Origin: Escherichia phage phiX174
Length of the DNA stretch: 5,369 nt
Sequence record: AF299308.1
Reading direction: 5' to 3' (one strand)
Part shown: in pieces, positions 1-5,369 of the stretch
Position numbering within the stretch: the stretch's first letter is position 1
Layout: the number at the start of each line of letters is the position of its first letter
Notes under the pieces: generated by a model
What the model was told of the DNA's origin: nothing
Database searches by the model: none
Seen by the model: only the letters and a program-made list of their open reading frames with translations
Position numbers and translations under genes: made by a program

Positions 1-51
1 GAGTTTTATCGCTTCCATGACGCAGAAATTAACACTTTCGGATATTTCTGA
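1..51 (+). CDS. B: Internal scaffolding protein B, C-terminal 17 codons (3' part of the ORF that starts at 5058 and wraps across the window end); stop TGA at 49-51
   Basis: Reading frame is continuous from 5369 to 1; translation ...PAEFYRFHDAEINTFGYF* matches the phiX174 B C-terminus; stop TGA overlaps K start (TGATG at 49-53). Total 120 aa. Confidence 0.85.
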   Translation, partial: EFYRFHDAEINTFGYF

Positions 52-136
52 TGAGTCGAAAAATTATCTTGATAAAGCAGGAATTACTACTGCTTGTTTA
101 CGAATTAAATCGAAGTGGACTGCTGGCGGGAAATGA
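1..136 (+). CDS. A: Replication initiation protein A (and A*), C-terminal 45 codons (3' part of the ORF that starts at 3964 and wraps across the window end); stop TGA at 134-136
   Basis: Codon CA|G is split across 5369/1; translation ...SFIASMTQKLTLSDISDESKNYLDKAGITTACLRIKSKWTAGGK* matches the A C-terminus; stop overlaps C start (ATGA at 133-136). Total 513 aa. Confidence 0.9.
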   Translation, partial: SFIASMTQKLTLSDISDESKNYLDKAGITTACLRIKSKWTAGGK

Positions 137-221
137 GAAAATTCGACCTATCCTTGCGCAGCTCGAGAAGCTCTTACTTTGCGACCTTTCGCCATCAACT
201 AACGATTCTGTCAAAAACTGA
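51..221 (+). CDS. K: Protein K (small membrane protein, burst-size modulator), 56 aa
   Basis: ATG at 51 overlapping B stop; translation MSRKIILIKQELLLLVYELNRSGLLAGNEKIRPILAQLEKLLLCDLSPSTNDSVKN* matches phiX174 K; overprinted on the A 3' end and C 5' end. Absent from the ORF track because it is under 60 aa. Confidence 0.85.
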   Translation: MSRKIILIKQELLLLVYELNRSGLLAGNEKIRPILAQLEKLLLCDLSPSTNDSVKN

Positions 222-393
222 CGCGTTGGATGAGGAGAAGTGGCTTAATATGCTTGGCACGTTCGTCAAGGACTGGTTTAGATATGAGTCACATTTTGTT
301 CATGGTAGAGATTCTCTTGTCGACATTTTAAAAGAGCGTGGATTACTATCTGAGTCCGATGCTGTTCAACCACTAATAGGTAAGAAATCATGA
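133..393 (+). CDS. C: Protein C (switch from dsDNA replication to ssDNA synthesis/packaging), 86 aa
   Basis: ATG at 133-135 overlaps A stop (ATGA); translation MRKFDLSLRSS...PLIGKKS* matches phiX174 C. The ORF track starts this ORF at a GTG at 115, but the canonical start is the ATG at 133. Confidence 0.9.
   Translation: MRKFDLSLRSSRSSYFATFRHQLTILSKTDALDEEKWLNMLGTFVKDWFRYESHFVHGRDSLVDILKERGLLSESDAVQPLIGKKS
317..358 (+). promoter_or_regulatory. Putative promoter pD: -10-like TACTAT at 345-350 with a weak -35 around 317-327; expected transcript start near 357-358
   Basis: Sigma70-like -10 hexamer (4/6 match to TATAAT) about 40 nt upstream of the D start, in the position where the phiX174 D promoter is known to lie inside gene C. 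The -35 is a poor match. Confidence 0.4.
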
Positions 394-848
394 GTCAAGT
401 TACTGAACAATCCGTACGTTTCCAGACCGCTTTGGCCTCTATTAAGCTCATTCAGGCTTCTGCCGTTTTGGATTTAACCGAAGATGATTTCGATTTTCTG
501 ACGAGTAACAAAGTTTGGATTGCTACTGACCGCTCTCGTGCTCGTCGCTGCGTTGAGGCCTGCGTTTATGGTACGCTGGACTTTGTGGGATACCCTCGCT
601 TTCCTGCTCCTGTTGAGTTTATTGCTGCCGTCATTGCTTATTATGTTCATCCCGTCAACATTCAAACGGCCTGTCTCATCATGGAAGGCGCTGAATTTAC
701 GGAAAACATTATTAATGGCGTCGAGCGTCCGGTTAAAGCCGCTGAATTGTTCGCGCTTACCTTGCGTGTACGCGCAGGAAACACTGACGTTCTTACTGAC
801 GCAGAAGAAAACGTGCGTCAAAAATTACGTGCAGAAGGAGTGATGTAA
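390..848 (+). CDS. D: External scaffolding protein D, 152 aa
   Basis: ORF track 390..848; translation MSQVTEQSVRFQTALASIKLIQ...RQKLRAEGVM* matches phiX174 D; ATG overlaps C stop (ATGA), stop TAA overlaps J start (TAATG). Confidence 0.95.
   Translation: MSQVTEQSVRFQTALASIKLIQASAVLDLTEDDFDFLTSNKVWIATDRSRARRCVEACVYGTLDFVGYPRFPAPVEFIAAVIAYYVHPVNIQTACLIMEGAEFTENIINGVERPVKAAELFALTLRVRAGNTDVLTDAEENVRQKLRAEGVM
568..843 (+). CDS. E: Lysis protein E (MraY inhibitor), 91 aa, overprinted in the +1 frame of D
   Basis: Translation from ATG 568: MVRWTLWDTLAFLLLLSLLLPSLLIMFIPSTFKRPVSSWKAL...KNYVQKE*; N-terminal transmembrane helix; GAGG Shine-Dalgarno at 553-556. The ORF track starts at a TTG at 520; the canonical start is the internal ATG at 568. 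Confidence 0.9.
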   Translation: MVRWTLWDTLAFLLLLSLLLPSLLIMFIPSTFKRPVSSWKALNLRKTLLMASSVRLKPLNCSRLPCVYAQETLTFLLTQKKTCVKNYVQKE

Positions 849-964
849 TGTCTAAAGGTAAAAAACGTTCTGGCGCTCGCCCTGGTCGTCCGCAGCCGTT
901 GCGAGGTACTAAAGGCAAGCGTAAAGGCGCTCGTCTTTGGTATGTAGGTGGTCAACAATTTTAA
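848..964 (+). CDS. J: Small basic DNA-binding/packaging protein J, 38 aa
   Basis: ATG 848 overlaps D stop; AGGAG Shine-Dalgarno at 835-839; translation MSKGKKRSGARPGRPQPLRGTKGKRKGARLWYVGGQQF* is highly basic and matches phiX174 J. Confidence 0.9.
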   Translation: MSKGKKRSGARPGRPQPLRGTKGKRKGARLWYVGGQQF

Positions 965-968
965 TTGC

Positions 969-984
969 AGGGGCTTCGGCCCCT
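969..984 (+). terminator. J-F intergenic hairpin: 6-bp stem AGGGGC/GCCCCT closing a C(UUCG)G tetraloop; candidate partial terminator/mRNA stabiliser (TJ)
   Basis: Perfect inverted repeat aggggc-ttcg-gcccct 5 nt after the J stop codon; no downstream T-run, so termination is likely leaky, consistent with known read-through into F. Confidence 0.55.
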
Positions 985-1000
985 TACCTGAGGATAAATT

Positions 1001-2284
1001 ATGTCTAGTATTCAAACTGGCGCCGAGCGTATGCCGCATGACCTTTCCCATCTTGGCTTCCTTGCTGGTCAGATTGGTCGTCTTATTACCATTTCAACTA
1101 CTCCGGTTATCGCTGGCGACTCCTTCGAGATGGACGCCGTTGGCGCTCTCCGTCTTTCTCCATTGCGTCGTGGCCTTGCTATTGACTCTACTGTAGACAT
1201 TTTTACTTTTTATGTCCCTCATCGTCACGTTTATGGTGAACAGTGGATTCAGTTCATGAAGGATGGTGTTAATGCCACTCCTCTCCCGACTGTTAACACT
1301 ACTCATTATATTGACCATGCCGCTTTTCTTGGCACGATTAACCCTGATACCAATAAAATCCCTAAGCATTTGTTTCAGGGTTATTTGAATATCTATAACA
1401 ACTATTTTAAAGCGCCGTGGATGCCTGACCGTACCGAGGCTAACCCTAATGAGCTTAATCAAGATGATGCTCGTTATGGTTTCCGTTGCTGCCATCTCAA
1501 AAACATTTGGACTGCTCCGCTTCCTCCTGAGATTGAGCTTTCTCGCCAAATGACGACTTCTACCACATCTATTGACATTATGGGTCTGCAAGCTGCTTAT
1601 GCTAATTTGCATACTGACCAAGAACGTGATTACTTCATGCAGCGTTACCGTGATGTTATTTCTTCATTTGGAGGTAAAACCTCTTATGACGCTGACAACC
1701 GTCCTTTACTTGTCATGCGCTCTAATTTCTGGGCATCTGGCTATGATGTTGATGGAACTGACCAAACGTCGTTAGGCCAGTTTTCTGGTCGTGTTCAACA
1801 GACCTATAGACATTCTGTGCCGCGTTTCTTTGTTCCTGAGCATGGCACTATGTTTACTCTTGCGCTTGTTCGTTTTCCGCCTACTGCGACTAAAGAGATT
1901 CAGTACCTTAACGCTAAAGGTGCTTTGACTTATACCGATATTGCTGGCGACCCTGTTTTGTATGGCAACTTGCCGCCGCGTGAAATTTCTATGAAGGATG
2001 TTTTCCGTACTGGTGATTCGTCTAAGAAGTTTAAGATTGCTGAGGGTCAGTGGTATCGTTATGCGCCTTCGTATGTTTCTCCTGTTTATCACCTTCTTGA
2101 AGGCTTCCCATTCATCCAGGAACCGCCTTCTGGTGATTTGCAAGAACGCGTACTTATTCGCCACCAGGATTATGACCAGTGTTTCCAGTCCGTTCAGTTG
2201 TTGCAGTGGAATAGTCAGGTTAAATTTAATGTGACCGTTTATCGCAATCTGCCGACCACTCGCGATTCAATCATGACTTCGTGA
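1001..2284 (+). CDS. F: Major capsid protein F, 427 aa
   Basis: ORF track 1001..2284; translation [28 protein letters not shown]... matches phiX174 F with several substitutions; GAGG Shine-Dalgarno at 990-993. Confidence 0.95.
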
Positions 2285-2379
2285 TAAAAGATAACGCCGA
2301 AGCGGTAAAAATTTTAATTTTTGCCGCTGAGGGGTTGACCAAGCGAAGCGCGGTAGGTTATCTGCTCAGGAGTTTAATC
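2285..2379 (+). promoter_or_regulatory. F-G intergenic region (95 nt) with two hairpins; corresponds to the region carrying the primosome assembly site (n'/PriA recognition) for complementary-strand synthesis in phiX174
   Basis: Non-coding spacer between F stop (2282-2284) and G start (2380); contains a long imperfect palindrome at 2301-2328 and a GCGAAGC mini-hairpin motif at 2343-2349; AGGAG Shine-Dalgarno for G at 2368-2372. Confidence 0.5.
2301..2328 (+). terminator. AT-rich palindromic hairpin (about 12-bp stem including one G-T pair, 4-nt loop) after gene F; candidate TF terminator/stabiliser and part of the PAS structure
   Basis: agcggtaaaaat-ttta-atttttgccgct: positions i and j pair where i+j=4629, from 2301/2328 inward to 2312/2317. 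Confidence 0.5.
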
Positions 2380-2907
2380 ATGTTTCAGACTTTTATTTCT
2401 CGCCATAATTCAAACTTTTTTTCTGATAAGCTGGTTCTCACTTCTGTTACTCCAGCTTCTTCGGCACCTGTTTTACAGACACCTAAAGCTACATCGTCAA
2501 CGTTATATTTTGATAGTTTGACGGTTAATGCTGGTAATGGTGGTTTTCTTCATTGCATTCAGATGGATACATCTGTCAACGCCGCTAATCAGGTTGTTTC
2601 TGTTGGTGCTGATATTGCTTTTGATGCCGACCCTAAATTTTTTGCCTGTTTGGTTCGCTTTGAGTCTTCTTCGGTTCCGACTACCCTCCCGACTGCCTAT
2701 GATGTTTATCCTTTGAATGGTCGCCATGATGGTGGTTATTATACCGTCAAGGACTGTGTGACTATTGACGTCCTTCCCCGTACGCCGGGCAATAATGTTT
2801 ATGTTGGTTTCATGGTTTGGTCTAACTTTACCGCTACTAAATGCCGCGGATTGGTTTCGCTGAATCAGGTTATTAAAGAGATTATTTGTCTCCAGCCACT
2901 TAAGTGA
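2380..2907 (+). CDS. G: Major spike protein G, 175 aa
   Basis: ATG at 2380 preceded by AGGAG; translation [36 protein letters not shown]...EIICLQPLK* matches phiX174 G. The ORF track extends it to a GTG at 2281, which is not the real start. Confidence 0.95.
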
Positions 2908-2915
2908 GGTGATTT

Positions 2916-3899
2916 ATGTTTGGTGCTATTGCTGGCGGTATTGCTTCTGCTCTTGCTGGTGGCGCCCTGTCTAAATTGTTTGGAGGCGGTCAAGCCGCCT
3001 CCGGTGGCATTCAAGGTGATGTGCTTGCTACCGATAGCAATACTATAGGCATGGGTGATGCTGGTATTAAATCTGCCATTCAAGGCTCTAATGTTCCTAA
3101 CCATGATGAGTCCGCCCCTAGTCTTGTTTCTGGTGCTATGGCTAAAGCTGGTAAAGGACTTCTTGAAGGTACGTTGCAGGCTGGCACTTCTGCCGTTTCT
3201 GATAAGTTGCTTGATTTGGTTGGACTTGGTGGCAAGTCTGCCGCTGATAAAGGAAAGGATACTCGTGATTATCTTGCTGCTGCATTTCCTGAGCTTAATG
3301 CTTGGGAGCGTGCTGGTACTGATGCTTCCTCTGCTGGTATGGTTGACGCCGGATTTGAGAATCAAAAAGAGCTTACTAAAATGCAACTGGACAATCAGAA
3401 AGAGATTGCCAAGATGCAAAATGAGACTCAAAAAGAGATTGCTGGCATTCAGTCGGCGACTTCACGCCAGAATACGAAAGACCAGGTATATGCACAAAAT
3501 GAGATGCTTGCTTATCAACAGAAGGAGTCTACTGCTCGCGTTGCGTCTATTATGGAAAACACCAATCTTTCCAAGCAACAGCAGGTTTCCGAGATTATGC
3601 GCCAAATGCTTACTCAAGCTCAAACGGCTGGTCAGTATTTTACCAATGACCAAATCAAAGAAATGACTCGCAAGGTTAGTGCTGAGGTTGACTTAGTTCA
3701 TCAGCAAACGCAGAATCAGCGGTATGGCTCTTCTCATATTGGCGCTACTGCAAAGGATATTTCTAATGTCGTCACTGATGCTGCTTCTGGTGTGGTTGAT
3801 ATTTTTCATGGTATTGATAAAGCTGTTGCCGATACTTGGAACAATTTCTGGAAAGACGGTAAAGCTGATGGTATTGGCTCTAATTTGTCTAGGAAATAA
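2916..3899 (+). CDS. H: Minor spike / DNA pilot protein H, 327 aa
   Basis: ORF track 2916..3899; Gly/Ala-rich N-terminus [31 protein letters not shown] and Gln-rich coiled-coil-like middle match phiX174 H; GAGG Shine-Dalgarno at 2906-2909. Confidence 0.95.
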
Positions 3900-3908
3900 C
3901 CGTCAGGA

Positions 3909-3937
3909 TTGACACCCTCCCAATTGTATGTTTTCAT
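3909..3937 (+). promoter_or_regulatory. Putative promoter pA: perfect -35 TTGACA (3909-3914), 17-nt spacer, weak -10 TTTCAT (3932-3937)
   Basis: Consensus -35 hexamer 10 nt after the H stop; the -10 is only 4/6. The A promoter is expected in the H-A spacer. Confidence 0.4.
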
Positions 3938-3963
3938 GCCTCCAAAATCTTGGAGGCTTTTTT
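3938..3963 (+). terminator. Rho-independent terminator after H (TH): 8-bp stem GCCTCCAA/TTGGAGGC, 4-nt loop, then TTTTTT running directly into the A start codon
   Basis: Perfect inverted repeat 3938-3945/3950-3957 followed by six T at 3958-3963; the 3' arm contains the GGAGG Shine-Dalgarno for gene A (3953-3957). Confidence 0.7.
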
Positions 3964-5369
3964 ATGGTTCGTTCTTATTACCCTTCTGAATGTCACGCTG
4001 ATTATTTTGACTTTGAGCGTATCGAGGCTCTTAAACCTGCTATTGAGGCTTGTGGCATTTCTACTCTTTCTCAATCCCCAATGCTTGGCTTCCATAAGCA
4101 GATGAATAACCGCATCAAGCTCTTGGAAGAGATTCTGTCTTTTCGTATGCGGGGCGTTGAGTTCGATAATGGTGATATGTATGTTGACGGCCATAAGGCT
4201 GCTTCTGACGTTCGTGATGAGTTTGTATCTGTTACTGAGAAGTTAATGGATGAATTGGCACAATGCTACAATGTGCTCCCCCAACTTGATATTAATAACA
4301 CTATAGACCACCGCCCCGAAGGGGACGAAAAATGGTTTTTAGAGAACGAGAAGACGGTTACGCAGTTTTGCCGCAAGCTGGCTGCTGAACGCCCTCTTAA
4401 GGATATTCGCGAGGAGTATAATTACCCCAAAAAGAAAGGTATTAAGGATGAGTGTTCAAGATTGCTGGAGGCCTCCACTATGAAATCGCGTAGAGGCTTT
4501 ACTATTCAGCGTTTGATGAATGCAATGCGACAGGCTCATGCTGATGGTTGGTTTATCGTTTTCGACACTCTCACGTTGGCTGACGACCGATTAGAGGCGT
4601 TTTATGATAATCCCAATGCTTTGCGTGACTATTTTCGTGGTATTGGTCGTATGGTTCTTGCTGCCGAGGGTCGCAAGGCTAATGATTCACACGCCGACTG
4701 CTATCAGTATTTTTGTGTGCCTGAGTATGGTACAGCTAATGGCCGTCTTCATTTCCATGCGGTGCATTTTATGCGGACACTTCCTACAGGTAGCGTTGAC
4801 CCTAATTTTGGTCGTCGGGTACGCAATCGCCGCCAGTTAAATACCTTGCAAAATACGTGGCCTTATGGTTACAGTATGCCCATCGCAGTTCGCTACACGC
4901 AGGACGCTTTTTCACGTTCTGGTTGGTTGTGGCCTGTTGATGCTAAAGGTGAGCCGCTTAAAGCTACCAGTTATATGGCTGTTGGTTTCTATGTGGCTAA
5001 ATACGTTAACAAAAAGTCAGATATGGACCTTGCTGCTAAAGGTCTAGGAGCTAAAGAATGGAACAACTCACTAAAAACCAAGCTGTCGCTACTTCCCAAG
5101 AAGCTGTTCAGAATCAGAATGAGCCGCAACTTCGGGATGAAAATGCTCACAATGACAAATCTGTCCACGGAGTGCTTAATCCAACTTACCAAGCTGGGTT
5201 ACGACGCGACGCCGTTCAACCAGATATTGAAGCAGAACGCAAAAAGAGAGATGAGATTGAGGCTGGGAAAAGTTACTGTAGCCGACGTTTTGGCGGCGCA
5301 ACCTGTGACGACAAATCTGCTCAAATTTATGCGCGCTTCGATAAAAATGATTGGCGTATCCAACCTGCA
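3964..5369 (+). CDS. A: Replication initiation protein A (rolling-circle HUH endonuclease), N-terminal 468 codons; ORF continues across the window end to 1..136
   Basis: ATG 3964 after GGAGG; no stop in frame to the window end; translation MVRSYYPSECHADYFDFERIEALKPAIEACG...; HUH motif (H-F-H) at 4750-4758; paired catalytic tyrosines in FYVAKYVNKK (Y codons at 4990-4992 and 5002-5004). Not in the ORF track because it has no in-window stop. Confidence 0.95.
   Translation, partial: MVRSYYPSECHADYFDFERIEALKPAIEACGISTLSQSPMLGFHKQMNNRIKLLEEILSFRMRGVEFDNGDMYVDGHKAASDVRDEFVSVTEKLMDELAQCYNVLPQLDINNTIDHRPEGDEKWFLENEKTVTQFCRKLAAERPLKDIREEYNYPKKKGIKDECSRLLEASTMKSRRGFTIQRLMNAMRQAHADGWFIVFDTLTLADDRLEAFYDNPNALRDYFRGIGRMVLAAEGRKANDSHADCYQYFCVPEYGTANGRLHFHAVHFMRTLPTGSVDPNFGRRVRNRRQLNTLQNTWPYGYSMPIAVRYTQDAFSRSGWLWPVDAKGEPLKATSYMAVGFYVAKYVNKKSDMDLAAKGLGAKEWNNSLKTKLSLLPKKLFRIRMSRNFGMKMLTMTNLSTECLIQLTKLGYDATPFNQILKQNAKREMRLRLGKVTVADVLAAQPVTTNLLKFMRASIKMIGVSNL
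4282..4311 (+). other. Origin of (+)-strand rolling-circle replication: 30-nt core CAACTTGATATTAATAACACTATAGACCAC; A-protein nick between G4288 and A4289
   Basis: Exact match to the conserved phiX174/G4-type 30-nt origin sequence, located inside gene A and followed by a short GC hairpin (ccccgaagggg, 4313-4323). Confidence 0.85.
4480..5369 (+). CDS. A*: Protein A* (N-terminally truncated A from an in-frame internal start); continues across the window end to 1..136
   Basis: In-frame ATG at 4480 (…LEAS-TMKSRRGF…) preceded by a strong GGAGG at 4467-4471 with 8-nt spacing; corresponds to the known A* internal initiation site. Confidence 0.75.
   Translation, partial: MKSRRGFTIQRLMNAMRQAHADGWFIVFDTLTLADDRLEAFYDNPNALRDYFRGIGRMVLAAEGRKANDSHADCYQYFCVPEYGTANGRLHFHAVHFMRTLPTGSVDPNFGRRVRNRRQLNTLQNTWPYGYSMPIAVRYTQDAFSRSGWLWPVDAKGEPLKATSYMAVGFYVAKYVNKKSDMDLAAKGLGAKEWNNSLKTKLSLLPKKLFRIRMSRNFGMKMLTMTNLSTECLIQLTKLGYDATPFNQILKQNAKREMRLRLGKVTVADVLAAQPVTTNLLKFMRASIKMIGVSNL
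4846..4875 (+). promoter_or_regulatory. Possible promoter pB inside gene A: -35-like TTGCAA (4846-4851), 18-nt spacer, -10-like TACAGT (4870-4875)
   Basis: Sigma70-like hexamers about 180 nt upstream of the B start. Weak match; the position is only roughly consistent with the known B promoter location. Confidence 0.25.
5058..5369 (+). CDS. B: Internal scaffolding protein B, N-terminal 104 codons, overprinted in an alternate frame of A; continues across the window end to 1..51
   Basis: ATG 5058 preceded by AGGAG (5046-5050); translation MEQLTKNQAVATSQEAVQNQNEPQLRDENAHNDKSVHGVLNPTYQAGLRRDAVQPDIEAERKKRDEIEAGKSYCSRRFGGATCDDKSAQIYARFDKNDWRIQP... matches phiX174 B. Not in the ORF track because it has no in-window stop. 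Confidence 0.9.
   Translation, partial: MEQLTKNQAVATSQEAVQNQNEPQLRDENAHNDKSVHGVLNPTYQAGLRRDAVQPDIEAERKKRDEIEAGKSYCSRRFGGATCDDKSAQIYARFDKNDWRIQPA

Follow-up and report, generated by a model that had tools for sequence, protein, structure and literature searches.

Among the closest known relatives of the DNA considered here are the phiX174 isolates AF299300-AF299314, which stem from a chemostat study by M. W. Rain and H. A. Wichman (2001, unpublished) and are referred to in the literature as an unpublished experimental-evolution study (PMC2935103, PMC3606162). In the isolate labels, M denotes Salmonella typhimurium and 'hi' a temperature of 42-43.5 °C; the host of isolates named '...im8' is Salmonella and that of isolates named '...ic5' is E. 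coli. The runs counted for the series are five on Salmonella at 42 °C or more, five on E. coli at 37 °C and one on Salmonella at 37 °C (PMC3606162 Table 2). Further points of comparison are the laboratory ancestor Anc (AF176034.1) of the Bull and Wichman laboratories, the Sanger reference NC_001422.1 / J02482, the Illumina PhiX type (CP004084.1, MT947439.1) and the natural phages S13 (AF274751) and NC16 (DQ079888), which belong to the same species-level clade and have the same gene order. S1 (AF176027), the 'XC+Mad' isolates HM7536xx, CMMloMhi and CGGloMhi are other chemostat lines grown on Salmonella or at high temperature; they are independent lineages, which lack the CM and CMMhi backbone and carry T2305G instead of a 15-nt deletion that is described below.

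The whole stretch of DNA analysed, referred to as the window, is 5369 nt long and is a complete, intact circular phiX174 genome in Sanger numbering, plus strand, 17 nt shorter than the reference. It is of the same species as NC_001422 and colinear with it on the plus strand from Sanger coordinate 1 (query 1-5369 against 1-5386, 98.9%), and its best match is to positions 1-5368 of AF299306, 'isolate CMMhi' (query 1-5369, 99.9%). In a MAFFT alignment, the window departs from NC_001422 by 38 substitutions and 19 gap columns, a divergence of 0.7%, so that the preliminary description was right in regarding the genome as diverged from canonical phiX174 (5369 versus 5386 nt). The three length differences it had reported are also real: 15 nt are missing between F and G (ref 2291-2305), 3 nt are missing within H (ref 3007-3009), and one A is added to the A-run at ref 3962-3964 between H and A, which sums to -17 and accounts for the length (5386 - 17 = 5369). 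Start codons, reading frames and stop codons are kept in all 11 genes, and relative to NC_001422 a total of 26 amino acids are exchanged (without a separate count for A*) and one residue is lost, in seven proteins altogether (A/A*, B, K, D, E, F, H). The genes to which the text refers are as follows, all on the plus strand.

1 to 136, plus strand: 3' ends of A, A* and B, with G28A and A130G
390 to 848, plus strand: gene D, external scaffold, with F123L (T756C) and silent A57 (T560C)
568 to 843, plus strand: gene E, overlapping D, no change from the ancestor
1001 to 2284, plus strand: gene F, major capsid protein, with nine missense changes and silent I372 relative to the ancestor
2380 to 2907, plus strand: gene G, no change
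2916 to 3899, plus strand: gene H, pilot or DNA-ejection protein of 327 amino acids, with nine changes
3964 to 5369 and across the origin to 136, plus strand: gene A, with the A* start at 4480 and gene B from 5058 to 51, all frames intact

Five of the differences from NC_001422 (ref 833, 1650, 2811, 4518 and 4784) are peculiarities of the Sanger reference and not specific to this isolate, because the ancestor, S13 and NC16 all have the window allele at these sites. The window holds all five alleles by which the ancestor departs from the Sanger sequence (833A, 1650G, 2811T, 4518A and 4784T), and it shares gene order and replication origin with the ancestor; 833A and 2811T are also found in the Illumina type and in all non-Sanger phiX examined. 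The altered C-terminus of E that had been noticed beforehand (R89Q, G833A) is therefore genuine, but it is such a peculiarity, shared with the ancestor, S13 and NC16. The protein changes expected elsewhere were found as well, namely N3S near the N-terminus of F together with nine more F changes relative to NC_001422, V114I at the C-terminus of B, and a series of changes in the N-terminal region of H, to which A136T and E167K are added further downstream.

Against the laboratory ancestor AF176034, MAFFT alignment gave 33 substitutions and the identical indels, and the alleles fall into a nested order. The window has every derived allele of the C to CM and CM to CMMhi branches, including the 3-nt and the 15-nt deletion, and all derived alleles of the Anc to C branch except A3438G, which reverted on the CMMhi branch. 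The final step from CMMhi (AF299306.1, 5368 nt) comprises six substitutions and one inserted A. Private to the window, and supported by this one sequence, are T988C, A1250C, A2982C, G3063A, G3429A, T4580C and an additional A at the TH loop and PA start. Apart from these, CMMhi has the same C, CM and CMMhi alleles, among them the 15-nt deletion between F and G, the missing H Lys27, T321C, the F changes G102H, L243F, S337T, A362V and H389Q, and the A changes D48N and Q63R. A neighbour-joining tree places the window beside CMMhi within the laboratory clade, and its start coordinate and format are those of other members of the series. We are thus highly confident that the window descends from Anc through C, CM and CMMhi (AF299306) as a laboratory-evolved line of the Wichman laboratory series, although the exact H protein of the window did not turn up in a large protein and contig collection. 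T321C, which lies on the CM to CMMhi branch in our alignment, has been reported from a single experiment, with S. typhimurium as host at 43.5 °C, and C324T, here on the CG to CGGhi branch, appeared with Shigella sonnei as host at 42 °C (PMC3003669 Table 1). Among the 14 series records compared, the four second-level lines are each continued as '...C' and as '...Mhi', but CMMhi is without an 'Mhi' partner, and the published run count fits only with a fifth 'Mhi' line, which points to the window as the Mhi continuation of CMMhi. Going by this naming design and the run counts, the window is probably 'CMMhiMhi', accession AF299308, from a second high-temperature round on Salmonella.

Two other origins have to be weighed against this genealogy, the first being a contaminant contig of the Illumina PhiX control, with its differences explained as assembly or consensus errors. 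Contigs of phiX are indeed very common contaminants, several 'phage' records are plain phiX, and the ancestral F-G junction occurs in at least 120 assemblies of unrelated taxa and in 65 metagenome stretches. However, the 76 phiX contigs that we found in assemblies of unrelated bacteria and archaea differ from the spike-in type by four differences at most, and 70 of them match it exactly, whereas the window is separated from that type (CP004084, identical to MT947439) by 39 substitutions and 19 gap columns, and the spike-in was rejected. This is roughly ten times the five differences that the preliminary description had set as the upper limit for the control, and its view of a distinct isolate is upheld. 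Three of the five spike-in marker alleles (587A, 2731G and 3133T) are missing from the window, which begins at Sanger coordinate 1 and has no k-mer overlap; contaminant contigs of 5441 or 5513 nt, by contrast, start at arbitrary points. The differences of the window match independently Sanger-sequenced laboratory isolates base for base. The probability of a contaminant is accordingly negligible. Scarcely more credible is a wild, environmental phage of the phiX174/S13 clade, be it a phiX-like coliphage or a phage of Salmonella, although the divergence of 0.7% is greater than that of laboratory stocks and the window has 1727T and 2085T in common with S13 and 1304C and 1727T in common with NC16. 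These shared alleles lie at sites known to converge in experiments (PMC2935103); with the natural relatives the window has convergent alleles at F242, F361 and F101. The window is 141 substitutions from S13 and 185 from NC16, as opposed to 33 from the ancestor and six from CMMhi, it carries the full nested allele set of the documented genealogy, and its missense to silent ratio of 6.5 compares with 0.37 for S13 and 0.29 for NC16. Moreover, the junction of the 15-nt deletion was not found in three large environmental and genomic collections (IMG/VR, 185,579 species genomes and the JGI metagenomes). Of the two origins that had been suggested beforehand, a natural coliphage or a laboratory-evolved lineage, the nested alleles, the distances to S13 and NC16 and the missense to silent ratio thus leave the second standing and not the first.

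Within the laboratory lineage, the window could instead be another plaque isolate of the CMMhi population, or a descendant of it that was undeposited or otherwise named, and not 'CMMhiMhi'. The gap to CMMhi, with its six substitutions and one insertion, is smaller than the CMMhi to CMMhiC branch (11 substitutions and a 27-nt deletion), but few further changes are expected in a line already adapted to the same condition. The series design has a single free place, that of an Mhi line following CMMhi, and the published run counts call for a fifth line on Salmonella at high temperature. As start coordinate and format also match the rest of the series, we consider this reading unlikely. Clearly less likely still is that the window is CMMhi itself and that its seven private differences arose, in part or entirely, as sequencing errors in one of the two records, for which the homopolymer change from AAA to AAAA and the nature of the records, single isolates from about 2000 (PMC2935103), could be cited. 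Four of the six private substitutions are missense and lie in F and H, the most-evolving genes of these experiments, A1250C and the +A insertion are also present in independent records (EF380025 for the former, HM753683 and HM753702 for the latter), and T988C adjoins the recurrent sites 986 and 987. Random errors would not be expected to spare 11 frames and to cluster at known adaptive regions. The window is therefore a laboratory-evolved phiX174 from a known chemostat series, adapted to Salmonella at high temperature, neither a wild phage nor a spike-in, and scientifically ordinary; the affected sites have been described before for recognition of Salmonella as host, tolerance of heat, competition in replication and promoter down-tuning.

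The substitutions relative to the ancestor comprise 26 missense, four silent and three intergenic changes. The missense to silent ratio of 6.5 differs strongly from those of S13 (Fisher p = 4e-9) and NC16 (p = 4e-11) relative to Anc, whose differences are mostly silent, but random mutation would be expected to give 4.26, and the excess over this value is not significant (p = 0.30). By itself, the ratio shows that purifying selection is absent and does not demonstrate positive selection. Adaptation is argued from recurrence and published assays. Like the genealogy and the intact genes, recurrence is observed directly here: of the 33 substitutions, 17 are present in identical form in independent lines or natural phages. 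S1 has T756C, G1305A, T2009A, T2167G, G4122A and A4168G identical to the window, the HM7536xx isolates have the +A insertion, G4122A and A4168G, and CMMloMhi has G28A, C1727T, A1809G, C2085T, C3121A and T3141C. Some of the alleles shared by CMMhi and CMMloMhi could have spread from one chemostat to another by contamination or recombination and not have arisen independently.

The window is an ordinary 11-gene phiX174 whose differences are probably adaptations to host, heat and crowded chemostat culture, and they can be arranged in five groups. The roles given for F101/F336/F361/F388, F242, B114, D123, T321C, G4122A and A4168G are those of the cited papers; for the seven private changes and the indels we infer them. 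The F changes relative to the ancestor are N3S, K84Q, G102H, T178I, L243F, K270R, S337T, A362V and H389Q (F2, F83, F101, F177, F242, F269, F336, F361 and F388 in mature numbering), of which G102H is a two-base change and K84Q (A1250C) is private. As F101, F336, F361 and F388 are Salmonella host-recognition sites (PMC2935103), G102H, S337T, A362V and H389Q, together with H P64H, would form a group acting in Salmonella receptor recognition; changes at H64 have been reported only from Salmonella high-temperature chemostats (PMC3606162). A second group, F L243F, B V114I and D F123L, may act on the heat stability of capsid and procapsid, with L243F being a reversion of a laboratory temperature-sensitive allele (F242 L to F, PMC2935103). 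V114I results from G28A, which CMMloMhi has too, and a change at B114 confers growth at high temperature (PMC2935103). D F123L, also present in S1 (AF176027), is a recurrent change described as arising 'always at high temperature' (PMC2935103), against which may be set its place here on the Anc to C branch. A130G leaves protein A unaltered and changes K by E27G.

Seven of the nine H changes (M18L, loss of K27, N42S, V45I, P64H, A67S, F71L, A136T and E167K) lie within the first 71 residues (binomial p = 5e-4), and M18L (A2982C), V45I (G3063A) and E167K (G3429A) are private. This N-terminal cluster, a group of its own, presumably acts on DNA delivery or attachment; residues 136-170 are a recurrent hot region (PMC3606162).

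2991 to 2992, plus strand: junction of the in-frame 3-nt deletion of H Lys27 (ref 3007-3009, AAA), which arose on the C to CM branch and is common to all CM descendants

A further group would concern regulatory retuning, with a weakened -35 hexamer of PD, altered TJ tail, TH loop and PA start, substitutions ahead of gene G and 15 nt trimmed beside the primosome-site hairpin.

320 to 325, plus strand: PD -35 hexamer, TTGACA in the ancestor and TCGACA here by T321C, silent in gene C
969 to 993, plus strand: TJ terminator hairpin GGGGCTTCGGCCCC and tail, hairpin unchanged
2290 to 2291, plus strand: junction of the 15-nt F-G deletion (ref 2291-2305, equivalently 2293-2307)
2301 to 2328, plus strand: F-G hairpin with a 12-bp core, GCGGTAAAAATT / AATTTTTGCCGC, kept directly 3' of the deletion
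2360 to 2367, plus strand: substitutions upstream of gene G (T2375A at 2360, T2382C at 2367)
3938 to 3957, plus strand: TH terminator hairpin overlapping the PA transcription start, with the extra A in the run 3944-3947

T321C lowers the consensus match of PD from 10/12 to 9/12, and as an engineered mutation (mut321) it reduced transcription from PD and improved fitness at high temperature (PMC3003669). The private T988C changes the TJ tail from TTACTT to TTACCT, 2 nt before the Shine-Dalgarno sequence GAGG of gene F and next to the recurrent adaptive sites A986G and C987T (PMC3606162); the whole TJ element (ref 964-990) is deleted in sister lines. The 15-nt deletion, common to CMMhi and CMMhiC, is flanked by an 'AT' microhomology and removes T2305, the site of T2305G in the primosome-binding site (PMC3606162), and the CGGlo lineage has an independent overlapping deletion of 20 nt (ref 2288-2307). 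The F-G hairpin prediction is the same in ancestor and window, both as DNA and as RNA. T2375A and T2382C, the latter directly 5' of the Shine-Dalgarno sequence AGGAG of gene G, originated on the CM to CMMhi branch and do not recur in the other lines compared. The extra A enlarges the TH loop from 3 to 4 nt with a slight predicted stabilisation as RNA (-12.8 to -13.6 kcal/mol); the transcription start annotated in NC_001422 at 3962 is the first A of this run. Homopolymer length changes are a typical place for read errors, and the same change is seen in independent records.

Relative to the ancestor, A carries D48N (G4122A), Q63R (A4168G), D150E, D226G, S294T and the silent F200 (T4580C). G4122A and A4168G are recurrent across 12 and 14 experiments (PMC3606162) and recur in the independent lines compared here as well. 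D48N, Q63R and other N-terminal A changes would form the remaining group, acting in replication competition at high multiplicity of infection.

4282 to 4311, plus strand: 30-nt origin of viral-strand synthesis CAACTTGATATTAATAACACTATAGACCAC, unchanged
4562 to 4567, plus strand: internal TTGACA changed to TCGACA by T4580C, silent in A and A* and private

No variant column occurs in the alignment from ref 4210 to 4430, and the rep_origin of NC_001422 annotated at ref 4306 corresponds to window position 4289. A promoter scan returned no -10 partner for the internal TTGACA at 4562 to 4567, in which T4580C is the same change as that at PD.

The window (5369 nt) aligned end to end with phiX174 records, on the + strand from coordinate 1, with AF299306.1 'isolate CMMhi' (5368 nt) as its top match at 99.9% identity, and with NC_001422 at 98.9% identity over the full length. 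In a multiple alignment, it differed from NC_001422, whose numbering is used here for "ref" positions, by 38 substitutions and 19 gap columns, from the Bull/Wichman laboratory ancestor (AF176034, here Anc) by 33 substitutions and the same indels, and from CMMhi by just 6 substitutions and 1 inserted base. The divergence from canonical phiX174 claimed in the preliminary description is thereby confirmed, and the protein differences named there are real, comprising F N3S and nine others in F, an N-terminal cluster in H, E R89Q and B V114I. Its three length differences were also found in the alignment, and they are listed below together with five allele sites at which Anc differs from NC_001422.

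Features of the window relative to NC_001422 (ref), + strand
ref 2291-2305, junction at window 2290-2291: 15-nt deletion in the F-G intergenic region
ref 3007-3009: in-frame AAA deletion in gene H
ref 3962-3964: one additional A in the A run
window 833, 1650, 2796, 4501 and 4767 (ref 833, 1650, 2811, 4518 and 4784): the five Anc-versus-Sanger sites

The start codon, reading frame and stop codon are intact in 11 of 11 genes, and the 30-nt origin of viral-strand synthesis is unchanged. Membership of the species was judged by a colinear genome of ~5.4 kb that closely matches the type genome in nucleotide sequence and has the overlapping genes A, A*, B, K, C, D, E, J, F, G and H; with 98.9% identity, 11 intact frames at homologous coordinates and an unchanged origin, the window belongs to Sinsheimervirus phiX174. 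It is phiX174 and, more narrowly, belongs to a laboratory lineage whose sequences have been deposited.

The records AF299300-AF299314 stem from experimental-evolution work that was not published (PMC2935103; PMC3606162), a chemostat series of the Wichman laboratory credited to M. W. Rain and H. A. Wichman (2001), and 14 of them were aligned with the window. The isolate names form a tree, in which C gives rise to CG and CM, CG to CGGlo and CGGhi, and CM to CMMlo and CMMhi, and the alignment of the series mirrors this name tree exactly. The window carries all nested derived alleles along the path C -> CM -> CMMhi. From C it has the 4 changes, save A3438G, which reverted later on the path; CM contributes 6 substitutions together with the AAA deletion, and CMMhi a further 20 substitutions plus the 15-nt deletion, including the CMMhi-marking reversion at ref 3438. 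A neighbour-joining tree agrees with this placement. The preliminary description had left a natural phage and a laboratory-evolved lineage open as origins, and this complete allele path shows the latter to be correct. Beyond CMMhi, the window has seven private changes, T988C, A1250C, A2982C, G3063A, G3429A, T4580C and the additional A. Recombination was considered as their source, but there is no sign of it, as 0 of the 7 private alleles occur in any sister line of the series.

The isolate labels allow a more precise assignment. CGGlo, CGGhi, CMMlo and CMMhi are each continued by isolates ending in '...C' and '...Mhi', except that the '...Mhi' continuation of CMMhi is missing among the 14 records. 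For this series, 5 runs on Salmonella at >=42 C, 5 on E. coli at 37 C and 1 on Salmonella at 37 C are listed (PMC3606162 Table 2), and these counts match the isolate names only with a fifth 'Mhi' line. The naming scheme leaves this single slot empty, and AF299308 is the one accession of the series not among the 14 records; from this we infer that the window probably fills the slot as AF299308, with 'CMMhiMhi' as the expected isolate name. The meaning of the letters can be derived in a similar way. T321C is recorded from a single experiment, with S. typhimurium as the host at 43.5 C, and C324T from Shigella sonnei at 42 C (PMC3003669 Table 1), and in the series alignment they lie on the CM->CMMhi and CG->CGGhi branches, respectively. 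Later isolates from the same laboratory have Salmonella as the host for '...im8' and E. coli for '...ic5'. Together, these branches and hosts indicate that M stands for S. typhimurium, G for S. sonnei and C for E. coli C, and 'hi' for 42-43.5 C. A3438G (window 3420), gained in C, went back to A in two lines grown on Salmonella at high temperature, including the lineage of the window. In CMMhiC, which was returned to E. coli C, T560C, C1533T and T2167G are reverted and 3438G is regained.

The two other possible origins, a sequencing control and a wild phage, make different predictions. The Illumina PhiX control is represented here by CP004084.1, a record from a honeybee-gut bacterium project that is identical to 'Protaetiibacter phage SSC1' (MT947439.1), both evidently being sequencing-control phiX. 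It differs from NC_001422 at 587, 833, 2731, 2811 and 3133. A spike-in would be expected to show all five control alleles (587A, 833A, 2731G, 2811T and 3133T), while the rest of its 5386-nt genome follows the Sanger sequence and deviates at a few positions at most. Of the five, the window has just 833A and 2811T, both of which are common to every non-Sanger phiX examined. How far real contaminants depart from the control was seen in a search with the ancestral F-G junction, which was found in at least 120 assemblies of unrelated bacteria or archaea and in 65 metagenome stretches: 70 of 76 near-full-length contaminant contigs matched the control type without a single difference, and the most divergent contig had 4. 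The preliminary description had taken five or fewer differences from the Illumina control as the sign of a spike-in; the alignment gave 39 substitutions and 19 gap columns, as opposed to 0-4 differences among the 76 contigs, so that a spike-in origin is rejected and its view of a distinct isolate holds. The junction of the 15-nt deletion had no match in IMG/VR, the species-genome collection or the JGI metagenomes.

A wild phiX-like phage, as exemplified by S13 (AF274751) and the NC, WA and ID isolates, would be expected to differ from laboratory phiX174 by 2-4%, mainly at silent positions, as purifying selection leaves its signature. S13 has 114 substitutions relative to Anc with a missense:silent ratio of 0.37, and NC16 (DQ079888) has 156 with a ratio of 0.29, whereas the 33 substitutions of the window give 26:4, or 6.5 (Fisher p = 4e-9 and 4e-11 versus S13 and NC16, respectively), which lies within the range of 4.5-13 of other laboratory-adapted lines. 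The window is also 141 substitutions away from S13 and 185 from NC16, and the natural coliphage suggested as one of the two options is therefore wrong. The ratio was used only for this contrast with wild phages: random mutation is expected to give 4.26, and 6.5 is not significantly higher (p = 0.30), so that the ratio alone indicates an absence of purifying selection and was rejected as proof of positive selection.

Part of the apparent divergence originates from the reference. At the five sites at which Anc differs from NC_001422 (833A, 1650G, 2811T, 4518A and 4784T in ref numbering), the window has the Anc allele throughout, and S13 and NC16 also side with Anc, which identifies NC_001422 as the deviating sequence. 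Since the five alleles also occur in these natural phages, a member of the Anc lineage has to carry them, but they do not by themselves prove membership. E R89Q, F H217R and A A180T are thus oddities of the Sanger reference and not isolate-specific; the change reported at the C-terminus of E is real relative to NC_001422, but its allele is common to Anc, S13 and NC16.

The finding is already known in kind and almost certainly as a record. Its value is chiefly practical: the right label for the sequence is that of a laboratory strain of phiX174 evolved by experiment, and not that of a new virus, environmental diversity or spike-in contamination. It provides a worked example of how three such origins can be told apart, in which marker alleles identify the reference type, the nested genealogy the documented lineage and the missense:silent ratio the action of purifying selection, complemented by the distribution of differences among contaminant contigs. 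A literature search for 'CMMhi' returned nothing relevant, only an unrelated geology paper, the names of the six private substitutions led only to unrelated human, SARS-CoV-2 and chemistry papers, and an exact-protein look-up of the H protein of the window found no record.

Control-type phiX174 was also encountered, plain or embedded, under the names of phages of unrelated hosts (MT947439.1, MZ417522.1, PP417747.1, CP004084.1); such records include Protaetiibacter phage SSC1, Mycolicibacterium phage J1 (24,953 nt, with a phiX segment) and Enterobacteria phage ST5386. In the at least 120 bacterial and archaeal assemblies, k-mer overlap often extends the phiX contig to 5441 or 5513 nt. In the metagenome contig FUFK010037421.1 (327,964 nt), the phiX F-G junction is repeated at an exact spacing of 5386 nt; it appears to be a head-to-tail array of phiX174 with dozens of copies, presumably an artefact that assembly or long reads produced from control DNA.

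Many of the changes in the window fall at sites known from phiX174 adaptation, and, of its 33 substitutions from Anc, 17 are found in identical form in independent lines or natural phages. F G102H, S337T, A362V and H389Q correspond to F101, F336, F361 and F388 in mature numbering, which are Salmonella host-recognition sites, and F L243F (F242) is the reversion of a temperature-sensitive laboratory allele (PMC2935103). B V114I and D F123L are scaffold changes tied to high-temperature growth (PMC2935103); D F123L was acquired on the branch of line C. In the pilot protein H, 7 of 9 changes lie within the first 71 residues (p = 5e-4); the site of P64H, which is grouped here with host recognition, changes only in Salmonella high-temperature chemostats, and A136T and E167K fall inside the hot region 136-170 (PMC3606162). 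A D48N (G4122A) and Q63R (A4168G) have been found in 12 and 14 experiments, respectively, under all conditions, and were ascribed to competition at high multiplicity of infection (PMC3606162); they may act on replication under crowding.

Several changes affect regulatory elements. T321C, inherited from CMMhi, converts the -35 hexamer of the promoter PD from TTGACA to TCGACA (window 320-325), and an engineered T321C single mutant showed decreased PD transcription and increased fitness at high temperature (PMC3003669). The 15-nt deletion removes T2305, a nucleotide within the primosome-binding site at which T2305G recurs on Salmonella (PMC3606162); the core 12-bp hairpin stays intact. T2375A and T2382C lie just 5' of the ribosome-binding site of gene G. 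The sequence immediately 5' of the F-G hairpin has been changed in three separate ways, by the 15-nt deletion of CMMhi, by a 20-nt deletion (ref 2288-2307) in the Shigella-derived CGGlo lineage, which overlaps it, and by T2305G in the HM7536xx isolates. In the CMMhi lineage, the sole deletion line with a usable fold, the core F-G hairpin is preserved.

Biologically, nothing goes beyond the phiX174 experimental-evolution literature, with the seven endpoint-specific changes as possible exceptions. T988C removes one T from the tail of the terminator TJ, 2 nt 5' of the ribosome-binding site of gene F and adjoining the recurrent sites 986 and 987 (PMC3606162); the TJ hairpin itself is retained (window 964-990), with T988C in its tail as the sole change, which might weaken TJ termination or alter F translation. 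The additional A enlarges the loop of the terminator TH from 3 to 4 nt with a slight stabilisation of the hairpin, and lies exactly at the annotated PA transcription start. It also occurs in independent HM7536xx isolates, as seen in the full alignment of three records and in the matching of its probe segment to 5387-nt HM7536xx records. The probe for the private alleles consisted of concatenated 52-55-mers and had a second matching place in at most two records; owing to 28-nt seeds that arose by chance across segment junctions, its 3063 and 3429 segments matched every phiX record and are uninformative on sharing.

Anc has four TTGACA hexamers on the + strand, two of which are lost in the window, each by a silent T->C change of the second base to TCGACA: that of PD and, through the private T4580C, one inside gene A (window 4562-4567, ref 4579-4584). 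The -35 hexamer of PA is retained (window 3909-3914). The site in gene A has no annotated promoter, and the scan gave no -10 partner; this second change may be a coincidence. The two TTGACA losses, the T -> C change in the TJ tail and the A at the PA start and TH loop could be read together, and we consider it improbable that the seven private changes are a second, mainly regulatory round of adaptation and not a random tail of small benefits. If so, gene A would contain an unrecognised -35-like element, and transcription, or conflicts between replication and transcription, would have been retuned in a coordinated manner during prolonged high-temperature growth on Salmonella.

The TJ hairpin is lost entirely by a 27-nt deletion (ref 964-990) with at least three origins in the series (CG, CMMhiC and CMMloC), two of them after a return to E. 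coli C, and the 5359-nt records AF176032 and HM775309-11 probably carry it as well. Finally, EF380025.1 (isolate 10D90) has ~55 differences from Anc, overwhelmingly C->T, and a shortened annotation of gene C (133-369), and gives the impression of a line from mutagenesis or mutation accumulation; it has A1250C, G1304C, C1727T, C2085T and C3121A in common with the window.
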